Origin: Nitrospirota bacterium
Lineage (GTDB): Bacteria; Nitrospirota; UBA9217
Assembly: GCA_963840455.1 (NCBI GenBank)
Contig: CAWIYV010000014.1
Location: forward strand, 384,001-448,000
DNA: 64,000 nucleotides
Reading direction: 5' to 3'
Positions 53,148-55,775 of this stretch are shown one piece after another. Both the position numbers and the translations under genes were made by a program. The notes under the pieces are model-generated. The model made no database searches. It was not told the DNA's origin and saw nothing but the letters and a program-made list of their open reading frames with translations. The number at the start of each line of letters is the position of its first letter. Position 1 is the first letter of the stretch.

Positions 53148-55775
53148 ATGACGACTTTCGTTCAACGGATCATTGTACTATCAGCCTTTGTTCTCGGTTC
53201 CAGTCTGTTCGCCCCGGAGTCGCACGCGAGGGGAGGCGGCGGCTGTGTCGAGCAGGGCACCCATGTCCTCACGCCTTCCGGTCCTGTCCCGATCGAGCGG
53301 TTGAAGACCGGCGATACCGTGCTCGGCGTGGACCGGCAGATGCTCCGTCCCGTTACCGTCCGGTCGCTCATGCAGGTCCGGACGGAAGAATATGTTGAAC
53401 TCTCTGTGAACGGCCGCTTTCTGCGGCTCACCGCTGAACATCCCGTCGAAACAGCTCCGGGTGTCTTTCGGAACGCATCCCGTCTCAGGCAGGGTGATAA
53501 GGTCATCCTCCACGAGGACGGACTCATTGCCGATGCGGCAATAGTATCCATCAGACGCATTCAAAACAGCAAGCCCGCATACAACCTGCTTGTTTCGCCT
53601 GCCGGAACCTACTTGGCAAATACCATCGTGGTCCACAACAAGGGATGCTTCCTTCCCGACACACCGGTCCGGACGGCCGACGGTTCGGAAGTGCCGATCT
53701 CCGGGGTCCGGCAGGGCGACCGGCTGCTCGCGTTCACCGCTGATGGACATGTCGTCGCAGCAACGGTCCGTCAGGTGCTCACCCACGCTGCCGATGAATA
53801 CCGCATCGTACGGACCAGCAGCATGGTCCTGCAGGTCACACCGGAGCATCCTTTCTATGTCGGCGATGGAACATTCAAGACGCTCGAAGCCCTGCAGCCC
53901 GGCGACAGGATCTTTGCCTATGACGGGAGCGGTCTTAATCCTCAACGGATCGAGAGCATCGAGGCCGTGCGCGCTCCGGTCCGTGTCTATAACCTTATGA
54001 CCGACGCACCGCATACCTTCTTTGCGAATGGAATCGCAGTGCATAATAAAGGAGGAGGTGGCGGCTGTTTCCCGCCGGGGACAGAGGTCCTGACACCGCG
54101 AGGCGAGGTCCCGATCGAACATATTGCACCAGGCGAAACGGTCATCACGGTAGATGAGAATGGGCAACAGGTCCCCTCGATGGCGCTGTCAACGCATGCT
54201 GCCCGATCCCGGCTGCTGGTCATACGAACAACGCAGGGCGACCTGACGACGACCTCCGAGCATCCGCTGGCACTTGCGTCAGGAGGATTCCTGCAGGCGG
54301 GCCGGCTGGTCCCGGGCGATGCCGTGCTCGCGTGGAAGGACGGGTATACGAAGGCGCAGGTAACCGGCGTTGAACCGCTCGACGCCGATGCACTGGTATA
54401 TAATCTCACCGTGGACGGTCCGCACACGTTCATCGCCGGAGGGTTCGTCGTCCATAACAAGGGAGGGGGCGGTGGTGGATTCCGCAGCAGCGGCGGACGG
54501 TCCTCCTCGGGCGGCGGGTCCGGCACGGAGGGCGAGGGGCCGTTCATTGCGATGATCGTCCTCGGTGCGGTCATCATCGTCATCATTGCCGTCCGGAAGG
54601 AGAGGTCTGACAACCTTGACCAACTATTCAACAGGGGGGACATCGAGAAGAAGAGCGAAAAGACGGAGAAGCTTCTCGCGTTCATCGCGCAGCAGGACTC
54701 GACCGTCTCGCCCGACGTTCTCAAAAAAACCGTGGAAACCACCTTCCGAAAACTCCAGGAGTGCTGGCAGGCCCGGGAGTACGAGCCCATGAAGCCTCTC
54801 CTGATGCCAGACCTCTATGCCGACCATCTTGGCCAGATCCGCGGCATGGCGCGAAACCACGAGATCAATGTAATCTCCGGCCTGCAGGTCGACGCGGTCG
54901 ACCTGGTGAACGTCAGGTATACGCTCAAAGAGGAGGACCGGGAGTTCACGGCGCTCATCACGGCCACGGCGACGGACTTCTACATCGATGATCGTACGAA
55001 TGAGCGGATTCGCGGCGACCAGGGGGCCGCGCCGTTCCAGGAGTTCTGGACCTTCCAGTATCACCAGGACAAATGGCTCCTGCGGGAGATCGAACAGACC
55101 GCCGAGTCCGACATCCTGAATGACGACAACTTCTTCGAACAGTTCACCGACAAAGGCGTGGAGCAGGTCGAGGGCGCTGCGGCAAAGAAGGAGGGGCCGG
55201 AAGGCCCGTGGCTCGAAGGGGCGGTCATGACCAAGGAGCGCCGCGTCGAGCGGATGCTCAATTTCCTCGTAAAGACCGACAGCATCTGGGACCGGAAGAA
55301 GATGATGCTCACGGGCCGGAGCGTCTTCCTTGCAGTGACCGGGGCGTGGGAGGCAGGCGACCCGAGAGCGGTCCCCGCAGCAGACCTGTTCCCGGAGCTC
55401 GCCCGGGACCTTCACGATGCAATCAGGAAGAACCGGGACAAAGGCATCAGCCTCGAGTTCCGGAATCTTGCTGTTCGGAAGGTGGAACTGGTCCTGGTCA
55501 GGAACTTCGCCGACAACACCCAGGACGAATATATGGCGCGCATCCGTGCCCATGCCCAGAAGATCATGAAAGTGGCGGGCAACGTCGTCCGGCAGGACGA
55601 TGACGTGACGGCCTTCGAACAGTTCCTGACCTTCGGAAGGCTCGACAGCAGATGGAAGCTGAAGGAGGTTGTCCTGCCGCACGAGGCGGAGGGCGTGGTG
55701 GAGCAGGAGAATGTCGATCAGGAAGCATCGAAGCAGCAGGTCGAGTGGTACTACCAGCACACGCGGGCGGTGTGA
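53148..55775 (+). CDS. Exported membrane protein: signal peptide + 3 tandem Hint (intein-like) domains + Gly/Ser linker + TM + 2 Tim44-like domains
   Basis: Hints at 53244-53639, 53646-54047, 54066-54458, each with Cys1, TxEHP block B, YNL block F and HN end; C-terminal FQEFWTF..WLLREI and FEQFLTF..WKLKEV Tim44-like motifs. Confidence 0.9.
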   Translation: MTTFVQRIIVLSAFVLGSSLFAPESHARGGGGCVEQGTHVLTPSGPVPIERLKTGDTVLGVDRQMLRPVTVRSLMQVRTEEYVELSVNGRFLRLTAEHPVETAPGVFRNASRLRQGDKVILHEDGLIADAAIVSIRRIQNSKPAYNLLVSPAGTYLANTIVVHNKGCFLPDTPVRTADGSEVPISGVRQGDRLLAFTADGHVVAATVRQVLTHAADEYRIVRTSSMVLQVTPEHPFYVGDGTFKTLEALQPGDRIFAYDGSGLNPQRIESIEAVRAPVRVYNLMTDAPHTFFANGIAVHNKGGGGGCFPPGTEVLTPRGEVPIEHIAPGETVITVDENGQQVPSMALSTHAARSRLLVIRTTQGDLTTTSEHPLALASGGFLQAGRLVPGDAVLAWKDGYTKAQVTGVEPLDADALVYNLTVDGPHTFIAGGFVVHNKGGGGGGFRSSGGRSSSGGGSGTEGEGPFIAMIVLGAVIIVIIAVRKERSDNLDQLFNRGDIEKKSEKTEKLLAFIAQQDSTVSPDVLKKTVETTFRKLQECWQAREYEPMKPLLMPDLYADHLGQIRGMARNHEINVISGLQVDAVDLVNVRYTLKEEDREFTALITATATDFYIDDRTNERIRGDQGAAPFQEFWTFQYHQDKWLLREIEQTAESDILNDDNFFEQFTDKGVEQVEGAAAKKEGPEGPWLEGAVMTKERRVERMLNFLVKTDSIWDRKKMMLTGRSVFLAVTGAWEAGDPRAVPAADLFPELARDLHDAIRKNRDKGISLEFRNLAVRKVELVLVRNFADNTQDEYMARIRAHAQKIMKVAGNVVRQDDDVTAFEQFLTFGRLDSRWKLKEVVLPHEAEGVVEQENVDQEASKQQVEWYYQHTRAV

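Follow-up and report, generated by a model that had tools for sequence, protein, structure and literature searches.

Positions 53148 to 55775 of the DNA stretch analyzed here (hereafter the window: 64,000 nucleotides of a Nitrospirota bacterium, assembly GCA_963840455.1, contig CAWIYV010000014.1, positions 384,001 to 448,000) hold an open reading frame (ORF) for a protein that strings three intein-like Hint domains between a signal peptide and a membrane-anchored pair of Tim44-like domains. Each Hint is preceded by Gly (position -1) and followed by Lys (+1), and we found the same arrangement in what appears from sequence to be a membrane protein family of hundreds of Gram-negative species. Because every catalytic residue is kept in every unit, autoprocessing of the Hints is very likely. 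Whether the exported Hints would excise via a Gly thioester and Asn cyclization, with a Lys amine resolving the thioester, is in our view an evenly balanced proposition.

The ORF is on the forward strand, as are all features described below, and encodes 875 amino acids plus a stop. It opens with a Sec-type signal peptide (residues 1-27, nucleotides 53148-53228) with a predicted cut, read from the sequence, between ...SHA and Arg. The leader RGGGG (28-32; 53229-53243) constitutes the entire N-extein of Hint A (33-164, 132 aa; 53244-53639), which carries Cys1, TAEH, YNL and a terminal His-Asn. A Lys-Gly linker (165-166; 53640-53645) joins Hint A to Hint B (167-300, 134 aa; 53646-54047), with Cys1 in CFLPDT, TPEH, YNL and His-Asn, and a KGGGGG linker (301-306; 54048-54065) leads on to Hint C (307-437, 131 aa; 54066-54458), with Cys1 in CFPPGT, TSEH, YNL and His-Asn. 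The sequence after Hint C begins KGGGGGGFRSSGG... and forms a Lys plus Gly/Ser-rich, low-complexity tail (438-462; 54459-54533) that is predicted to be periplasmic and is disordered in the structural model (pLDDT <50). A hydrophobic transmembrane helix (about 463-486; 54534-54605) and the residues RKER come next, followed by two Tim44-like domains, both predicted to be cytoplasmic: domain 1 at about 490-655 (54615-55112; best PF04280 stretch 510-650) and domain 2 at about 691-850 (55218-55697; the second PF04280 stretch).

This layout, first proposed in a preliminary description of the locus, was borne out by the sequence and by Pfam and NCBIfam models, and the residues it had listed for all three units (Cys1, TxEH, YNL, His-Asn, Gly(-1) and Lys(+1)) are indeed there. 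The Pfam models PT-HINT (E 9.8e-31), Hint_2 and Hint each matched three stretches of the protein, as did the NCBIfam models of the intein N-terminal and C-terminal splicing regions, while Tim44 (E 3.6e-19) matched two, with PF04280 scores of 69.8-73.6 bits against a gathering cut-off of 29.6. The units belong to the Hint superfamily by their fold, block A Cys1 and block B Thr-x-x-His (Pfam, NCBIfam and Foldseek) and contain intein blocks A, B, F and G. The E-values of the hidden Markov model (HMM) matches, together with conservation across hundreds of homologues, exclude chance. At 131-134 aa the units have no space for a homing endonuclease and, being only 29-37% identical to each other, they are old paralogues; on both counts the preliminary description, which had argued against an endonuclease and against a recent duplication, was right. 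An AlphaFold2 (AF2) model built with a 28-sequence alignment (mean pLDDT 73) contained three all-beta domains (pLDDT about 80-89 for Hint A), disordered linkers at residues 19-30, 299-306 and 438-464, and a transmembrane helix at 464-486. The Tim44-like domains were modeled as two alpha+beta domains, the second with helices at 697-764 and strands at 767-842.

The cleavable signal peptide, the single transmembrane helix and the RKER that follows it led us to place the Tim44-like domains in the cytoplasm, and we infer that the Hints and Gly/Lys stretches lie outside the membrane. The earlier label of an "exported Tim44-like protein" is thus apt for the Hints and their Gly/Lys stretches but not for the Tim44-like domains. 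Signal peptides were a family trait: in 117 members they had a median length of 26 aa and a hydrophobic core, with A/G/S at -1 in 116 of the 117 and a small or aliphatic residue at -3. We also counted the scarcity of Cys in the Hints (no Cys besides Cys1 in 328 of 426 units) as a point for export. We rejected a lipobox reading of GGGG/C, because the hydrophobic core stops about 10 residues before the Cys and the -1 position relative to Arg suits signal peptidase I, and rejected Tat export for a leader without a twin-arginine motif.

The Hint(n)-Tim44 architecture, whose distribution the preliminary description had left to a homologue survey, is widespread and conserved. A word-indexed search (8000 candidates scored) identified at least 988 homologous proteins at E <= 0.001, and all 120 of the matches listed, 730-1286 aa long, had both Hint and Tim44 Pfam matches. 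Among GTDB species genomes (one per species), 304 stretches encode relatives. Of these, 79 loci were kept. Judged by record titles, the carriers belong to about nine phyla, among them Nitrospirota, Planctomycetota and Verrucomicrobiota with Lentisphaerae and Kiritimatiellaeota; others were "delta" lineages (Syntrophales, Smithella, Desulfarculales), Legionella and a second gammaproteobacterium, Elusimicrobiota, Terriglobia, Auribacterota and a single Anaerolineales bin. The gene is widespread, yet its occurrence is uneven. One copy is present in the genome that contains the window (4.03 Mb, 100% complete). Of 30 relatives examined, all five same-genus genomes carry the gene, which went undetected in 13 genomes from the family's remaining genera and in 12 from the phylum's other families. 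In two same-genus genomes (G004 and G005) a contig boundary divides the gene at its Hint repeats, probably because of an assembly break.

Sequence conservation shows that the Hints are under purifying selection like the rest of the protein. Across 28 diverse members the mean pairwise identities of Hints A, B and C were 50%, 62.5% and 48%, compared to 66.6% and 58.0% for Tim44-like domains 1 and 2. Hint B is, therefore, the most conserved Hint and level with the Tim44-like domains. Values for the signal peptide and the transmembrane helix were much lower (22-24%; 21.9% for the helix). The catalytic residues were invariant in the 28 sequences: C33, T95, H98, H163 and N164 in Hint A; C167, T231, H234, H299 and N300 in Hint B; and C307, T369, H372, H436 and N437 in Hint C.

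The residues flanking the Hints were constrained as well. We parsed the junctions with an HMM made from the three window units in two samples, one of 121 proteins (the 120 listed plus the query; 431 units) and one of the proteins of 78 genome loci. In the first sample 427 units begin with Cys and 430 end in His-Asn, the remainder being truncated or split, and no degenerate unit was seen among those surveyed. The residue at +1 was Lys in 430 of 430 units (one unresolved) and that at -1 was Gly in 426 of 427, with one Ser and four positions unresolved in truncated or split proteins. The second sample had Lys(+1) in 235 of 235 (two unresolved) and Gly(-1) in 231 of 231 (six unresolved). Random residues at +1, which the preliminary description would have taken as a sign of ordinary cleaving domains, are not what the homologues have. 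Cys, Ser, Thr or Arg never occupied +1 in the 430 and 235 resolvable units. In the leader, on the other hand, the basic residue was always Arg and never Lys: all intact N-termini (116 of 116 and 72 of 72) had Arg plus four G/A ahead of their first Hint. The leader read [A/G/S]-R-GGGG in 115 of the 116, with PRGGGG and GRAAGG as variants found once each. Of the 28 Lys-majority columns that the 28-sequence alignment has elsewhere, 19 contained Arg, yet Arg was never at +1; three of the five invariant Lys were the +1 sites. An asymmetry of this kind, with Lys alone after the Hints and Arg alone in the leader, would be expected if the Lys amine mattered beyond its charge, and a Lys-only +1 fits a role for that amine.

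The arrays also follow a grammar. Each window unit has orthologues in every family member, and the typing of 426 units returned the arrays ABCC (61), ABC (37), AB (9), ABAB (4), ABABAB (2) and four singletons. Between one and six Hints were present per member, drawn from three old types whose order is fixed but which vary in number by unit duplication (ABAB, ABABAB, ABCC and ABCBC). Among 63 Tim44-bearing representatives at 50% identity, 10 had one Hint, 22 two, 21 three, nine four and one five. The A-to-B linker was KG in 124 of 124 junctions and the B-to-C linker was K plus 1-5 Gly in 101 of 102, the exception being KGGS. Overall, the linkers of the 121-protein sample were KG (129), KGGG (111), KGG (28), KGGGGG (24), KGGGG (5) and KGGS (1), and the tail after the last Hint began with KGG without exception. 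At two loci (L036 and L042) Hint A gave split HMM matches, which suggests an indel inside the unit.

Beside the Hint-Tim44 gene is a partner that is absent from the preliminary description. A gene for an 89-aa DUF350 (YjfL-family, PF03994) protein with two hydrophobic helices (52848-53117) ends 30 nt upstream of the ORF. Its match to PF03994 (E 5.1e-07; 30.2 bits against a cut-off of 26) covers half of the 133-position model. In 74 of 80 loci (the 79 plus the window), HMM searches found a DUF350 orthologue as the immediate upstream neighbor in the same orientation; the six loci without a match have less than 160 nt of upstream DNA. The loop of the DUF350 protein (TPNIDEEKEIARGN.AVAEYFGR) is highly conserved and, by the positive-inside rule, probably cytoplasmic. 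A predicted complex of DUF350 with residues 438-875 scored 0.00 against a mark of 0.32, in a run without controls, and we counted it neither for nor against binding. A study comparing phage-shock systems (PMC11237479) lists DUF350/YjfL proteins in operons of PspA and of polyamine metabolism, a listing that hints at, and does not show, an envelope-stress context. Of the 65 loci whose upstream DNA exceeds 1300 nt, 26 have a gene of the LemA family (PF04011, E 5.5e-58) upstream of DUF350 in the same orientation, making a three-gene set of LemA, DUF350 and Hint-Tim44 (for example at L023, 4765-5550 (+), and at 25 further loci). No LemA gene was found at the window locus, where a gene for 3-deoxy-D-arabino-heptulosonate 7-phosphate (DAHP) synthase takes its place.

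The closest characterized relatives of the Hints are bacterial-intein-like (BIL) domains. The best sequence match in the Protein Data Bank (PDB) was 2LWY, a Clostridium thermocellum BIL (E 9.5e-12 to Hint C), and the next was Tetrahymena BIL2 (6TMM/6Y75; E about 9e-06 to Hint B); the Tim44-like half had no match to PDB sequences at E up to 1. Foldseek ranked BIL2 first (E 2.9e-09, 22% identity) and gave 2LWY a TM-score, normalized to the target, of 0.84 at 31% identity, the scores of the BIL2, C. thermocellum BIL and mini-intein matches ranging from 0.74 to 0.86. Like type A BILs (PMC4031507; PMC7765530), the units are mini-Hints with Cys1, a C-terminal His-Asn and no Cys, Ser or Thr at +1; aligned with 2LWY, they share its YN, in place of YD, in the block that precedes the end. 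The best PDB match, 2LWY, serves here as a proxy for the type-specific motifs of Amitai et al. (2003). Type A BILs differ, however, in having diverse flanks, whereas ours are invariant (Gly before, Lys-Gly after), and in residing in hypervariable regions of non-conserved proteins (PMC7765530), whereas host, positions and order are conserved here across about nine phyla. Also unlike type A BILs, the Hints described here form ordered tandem arrays of three paralogous types, and their N-extein is just five residues behind a signal peptide.

The second relative, BIL2 of the polyubiquitin-like BUBL locus of Tetrahymena thermophila, offers a different parallel. There, a BIL activates a C-terminal ...RGG as a thioester (PMC9200820), much like the RGG-like leader of the family, and the product reported (PMC8616854; PMC9200820) is an isopeptide with a Lys epsilon-amine, made without ATP. 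As in BUBL, cargo sits between autoprocessing domains. Unlike BUBL, which is eukaryotic and cytoplasmic and has folded ubiquitin-like cargo, the system described here is bacterial and predicted to be periplasmic, has no ubiquitin-like domain and carries between its Hints pieces of 2-6 residues (Arg/Lys plus 1-5 Gly).

Other known systems invite comparison as well. The Hints share the fold of class 1 mini-inteins (Npu DnaB, Ssp DnaB and Mtu RecA; target-normalized TM-score about 0.8) but have Lys at +1 in all units rather than Cys, Ser or Thr, exteins that are only R/K-Gly(n) instead of a conserved housekeeping site, and no intein-free joined allele among the 31 N-termini inspected. PT-HINT (PF07591), the pretoxin Hint of polymorphic toxins, was the best-scoring Pfam model, and NCBI names several homologues "polymorphic toxin-type HINT domain-containing protein", a name that comes from the domain model and nothing else: C-terminally, the protein has a transmembrane helix with two Tim44-like domains and no toxin domain, and the downstream gene is of the nitroreductase family rather than an immunity gene. 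Hedgehog Hog/Hint domains resemble ours in the Gly/Cys-Phe junction, in thioester chemistry on an exported protein and in fold (1AT0/6TYY), and differ in that ours have no sterol-recognition region, end in His-Asn and form tandem arrays. The membrane half, with its two PF04280 stretches, is akin to bacterial Tim44-like proteins (PF04280; the COG "predicted lipid-binding transport protein, Tim44 family", the label that JGI gives to the homologues) and scores below the NCBIfam cut-off for Tim44/TimA adaptors (NF033779; 32.6 bits against 80).

These comparisons suggest a mechanism for which we infer the topology, the processing, the nucleophile, the choice between cis and trans transfer, and the purpose. 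The core would be an inner-membrane protein with one transmembrane helix and two cytoplasmic Tim44-like (NTF2-like) domains, always co-encoded with DUF350; to this core a Sec-exported N-terminal add-on contributes three single-turnover Hints of a Lys(+1) bacterial-intein-like clade. Once exported and freed of the signal peptide, each Hint would fold; Cys1, aided by the Thr and His of block B, would convert the Gly-Cys bond to a Gly thioester; and the C-terminal Asn would cyclize with help from the penultimate His, severing the Asn/Lys bond. Because +1 offers no Cys, Ser or Thr, only an amine or water can resolve the thioester, and we favor the +1 Lys amine given the Lys-never-Arg rule and the two solved relatives. 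The freed Lys could attack through its alpha-amine, as proposed for type A BILs, or its epsilon-amine, as reported for Tetrahymena BIL2; the first route would yield an ordinary peptide bond and the second an isopeptide. The Hints would then be released as free periplasmic domains of about 14 kDa, leaving a mature protein with a short cationic tail of Arg, Lys and Gly before the transmembrane helix (R-GGGG-K-G-K-GGGGG-K-GGGGGG...).

The Gly-Lys isopeptide put forward in the preliminary description has a precedent in the same superfamily branch, because BIL2 is a close relative and the providers of its structure report (section 2.4 of PMC8616854) an isopeptide between a C-terminus and the epsilon-amine of Lys. 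This precedent and the Lys-never-Arg rule support the idea, but the best sequence match, 2LWY, is a type A BIL, for which the proposed route (PMC4031507) is thioester formation, Asn cyclization and attack by the freed alpha-amine of the C-terminal fragment. Several points weigh against excision with Lys-mediated ligation. The same paper reports that cleavage products of type A BILs outweigh splicing, and one review states that these domains cleave but cannot ligate (PMC7765530). Cleavage and ligation in the family are predictions from sequence, as is the topology, which was assigned by sequence rules. Given the partial overlap of the two junction samples and the common descent of the homologues, the counts of 430 and 235 units are not independent events. 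Finally, by either amine, the product of cis ligation would be close to a Gly/Lys tail that could be encoded directly, and cis ligation alone does not, therefore, explain why one to six Hints are under selection. Candidate functions are the trans-transfer or cyclization of activated R/K-Gly(n) pieces, a self-removing pro-region possibly sensitive to redox or nucleophiles, and a role for the released Hints.

How specific the Lys is to this family bears on the choice. We scanned 50%-identity representatives with Hint B (HMMER), which matched 10,238 of them at E <= 0.001 and 111 at E <= 1e-30. The best 150 comprised 63 double Tim44-like proteins, 25 without Tim44 but with the hallmark A-to-B junction, which are probably fragments, and 62 others. 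Units of these 62 other proteins had Lys at +1 in 81 of 110 resolvable cases and Gly at -1 in 55 of 120. The Lys specificity emphasized in the preliminary description is, hence, absolute in the Tim44-like family but not exclusive to it: a preference of a wider BIL-like clade has become fixed, together with Gly(-1), in the Tim44-like proteins.

The other Lys(+1) proteins include giants of 2,780-4,119 aa with up to five tandem units. In P0338 (4119 aa), P0328, P0380, P0382 and P0348, two to five tandem Hints are deep inside the protein and their junctions are mostly Lys (e.g., HN/KGGG, HN/KPGP and HN/KDTG). Other exported proteins share the plan of a signal peptide, a few Gly, 1-3 Hints, K-Gly(n), a Gly/Ser/His-rich tail and an unrelated C-terminus, so that the N-terminal Hint module looks portable from its sequence contexts. 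Such carriers are P0318, P0330, P0321, P0336 and P0381, one of which ends in Cys-rich repeats. P0341, P0358, P0363 and P0378 form a more remote branch, in which a signal peptide and RGG precede a pair of Hints with a KGGG(G) joint, then a Gly/Ser tail, a stretch with Cys and a transmembrane helix; a region of the P0341 group aligns weakly with Tim44-like domain 1 (24% over 139 aa, pairwise E 7e-04). P0346 (670 aa) has three tandem Hints with junctions RGW/CFW and HN/KGWC, where Trp replaces the Gly of its relatives, possibly as a frame or genetic-code artefact in the source or as a real variant.

The recurrence of Lys(+1) in unrelated giant proteins (the 81 of 110 units) is what one would expect if Lys served Hint catalysis, as in the alternative that the Hints only cleave. 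They would then be a self-removing periplasmic pro-region, perhaps a redox or nucleophile switch, whose thioesters are hydrolyzed while Asn cyclization frees the mature protein; Gly(-1) and Lys(+1) would be kept for fast cleavage and the role would be in timing, assembly or signaling to the Tim44-like/DUF350 module. The dominance of cleavage products among type A BILs (PMC4031507 and PMC7765530) agrees with this view, as do the Hint-less relatives, which manage with a bare N-terminal transmembrane helix, and the single Cys of 328 of 426 units, which would permit redox control. However, Cys1 and block B could decay if only the C-terminal cut mattered, and they are invariant in every unit; a catalytic or electrostatic role at +1 should tolerate Arg, which was never seen; and the constant A-B-(C) order, with a KG joint between A and B that never varies (124 of 124), suggests more than a disposable plug. 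We regard cleavage without ligation as unlikely.

Resolution of the thioester by the Lys amine, which we prefer, acquires a bolder form if the activated pieces leave the protein. Released RGGGG, KG, KGGG or KGGGGG would go to envelope amines (on peptidoglycan, phosphatidylethanolamine, polyamines or proteins) or close on themselves, as in cyclo(Lys-Gly), diketopiperazines being readily formed from dipeptide thioesters. In this view the Hints would act as a periplasmic device that ligates independently of ATP, comparable to the BIL-flanked ubiquitin-like units of Tetrahymena. BIL2 was both the top fold match and a sequence match, and the RGG motif that precedes the Tetrahymena BIL (PMC9200820) recalls the RGGGG before Hint A. 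A leader fixed in length and in its Arg (116 of 116 and 72 of 72) is needless for a flexible spacer, copy numbers of 1-6 are expected of single-shot reagents, the cis product has no obvious use, and DUF350 genes elsewhere are in PspA and polyamine operons (PMC11237479). Against such dispensing in trans, a cargo of only 2-6 residues per 130-aa Hint is costly, the data name no acceptor, and the DUF350 loop, being probably cytoplasmic, is not an obvious one. On balance we think it rather improbable. By analogy, the tandem Hints might correspond, in the bacterial periplasm, to the BIL "dispensing platform" of Tetrahymena, i.e., an ATP-independent, single-turnover machine making Gly-Lys isopeptides and coupled to the DUF350/Tim44-like module. 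This broader and quite tentative idea would cover both the cis outcome (a side-chain-linked N-terminal tail) and the trans outcomes (Arg/Lys-Gly(n) tags on envelope amines and small cyclic peptides).

A patchy distribution (5 of 5 genomes of the window's own genus, 0 of 13 from other genera of the family and 0 of 12 from other families of the phylum), arrays that vary by unit duplication (ABAB, ABABAB, ABCC and ABCBC) and the presence of the same N-terminal module on other exported proteins could also mark the Hints as selfish or neutral passengers, endonuclease-free BILs of Gly-rich linkers that splice out with a Lys scar and multiply by recombination between poly-Gly repeats. Yet loss through the flanking Gly repeats should be easy, and a pre-joined signal peptide and Gly/Lys tail without Hints was found in 0 of 31 N-termini inspected, in a search for shorter homologues that returned mostly truncated gene calls from short contigs or wrong starts and cannot prove such an allele absent. 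Hint-less relatives instead begin directly with the transmembrane helix, as does P0198 (405 aa), a paralogue made of this helix and two Tim44-like domains. Together with the fixed length of the leader and of the A-KG-B joint, these observations argue for function rather than neutral hitch-hiking. Moreover, the three types keep their order across about nine phyla at 48-62.5% identity, and Hint B is as conserved as the Tim44-like domains, all of which makes the passenger explanation a poor one. P0198 is encoded in a Brocadiia contig (L070, 4217-8133 (+)), followed by DUF350 and then a two-Hint (B-C) version of the gene, and this is the sole locus of the 80 with two Tim44-like genes. Hint-fold domains can be degenerate in other proteins and processing is a prediction here, so the units might be catalytically silent binding or spacer domains of the periplasm that are never removed; we consider this very improbable, because silent domains usually lose their catalytic residues and every surveyed unit keeps them all.

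BIL-like Hint chemistry is already known, and databases already label the domains. We found no paper describing the architecture, in keeping with the preliminary description, which saw in it a candidate for an undescribed system, in a literature search that left out most subscription journals. Within that same literature, no description was found of the Gly/Hint/Lys-Gly(n) grammar, of ordered A-B-C arrays behind a signal peptide, of a Hint fusion to a double Tim44-like membrane protein, or of the obligatory DUF350 partner. Protein splicing is usually viewed as the trick of a selfish element in housekeeping proteins, whereas BILs count as curiosities of secreted proteins that vary. The BIL-like clade described here is kept in fixed order, with invariant Gly/Lys flanks, on a conserved membrane protein of about nine phyla and, by prediction, in the periplasm, where there is no ATP. 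If the Lys amine is the nucleophile, the family would provide a natural, genetically encoded way of forming amides or isopeptides in the periplasm, would parallel in bacteria the ubiquitin-like conjugation that ciliate BILs are reported to carry out, and might be a source of ligation tools that dispense with Cys, Ser or Thr at the junction. The gene neighborhood also brings bacterial double Tim44-like proteins and DUF350/YjfL, joined by LemA at a third of the loci, together in one testable module.

The remaining neighbors in the window are genes for a protein with two "glycine transporter" (PF03458) repeats (50548-51159) and for a DAHP synthase with a ferredoxin-like N-terminal domain (51592-52686) on the upstream side, and for a nitroreductase-family protein (55824-56447) downstream; none of the three was conserved beside the module in the other loci. 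We rejected a reading of the locus as a defense system: the one PADLOC match was a weak one between the C-terminus of Hint B and a model of homing endonucleases, and DUF350 and LemA had none. A scan of positions 52500-56600 for promoters and terminators detected no more signals than shuffled sequences did. The sequencing runs listed for the locus included 20 of DNA, from wetland, freshwater, soil and subsurface metagenomes, and none of RNA. Comparison of the Hint region (residues 1-470) with protein clusters, Tim44 clusters excluded, gave scores of at most 0.81 to generic, mostly phage Hint clusters, which we treated as leads only and did not use. Two genes downstream of the Hint-Tim44 ORF, and with no evident link to it, a 64-aa ORF (56554-56748) with CxxC and CxxCxGxG motifs had sub-threshold matches to the DnaJ central domain and to anti-TRAP.

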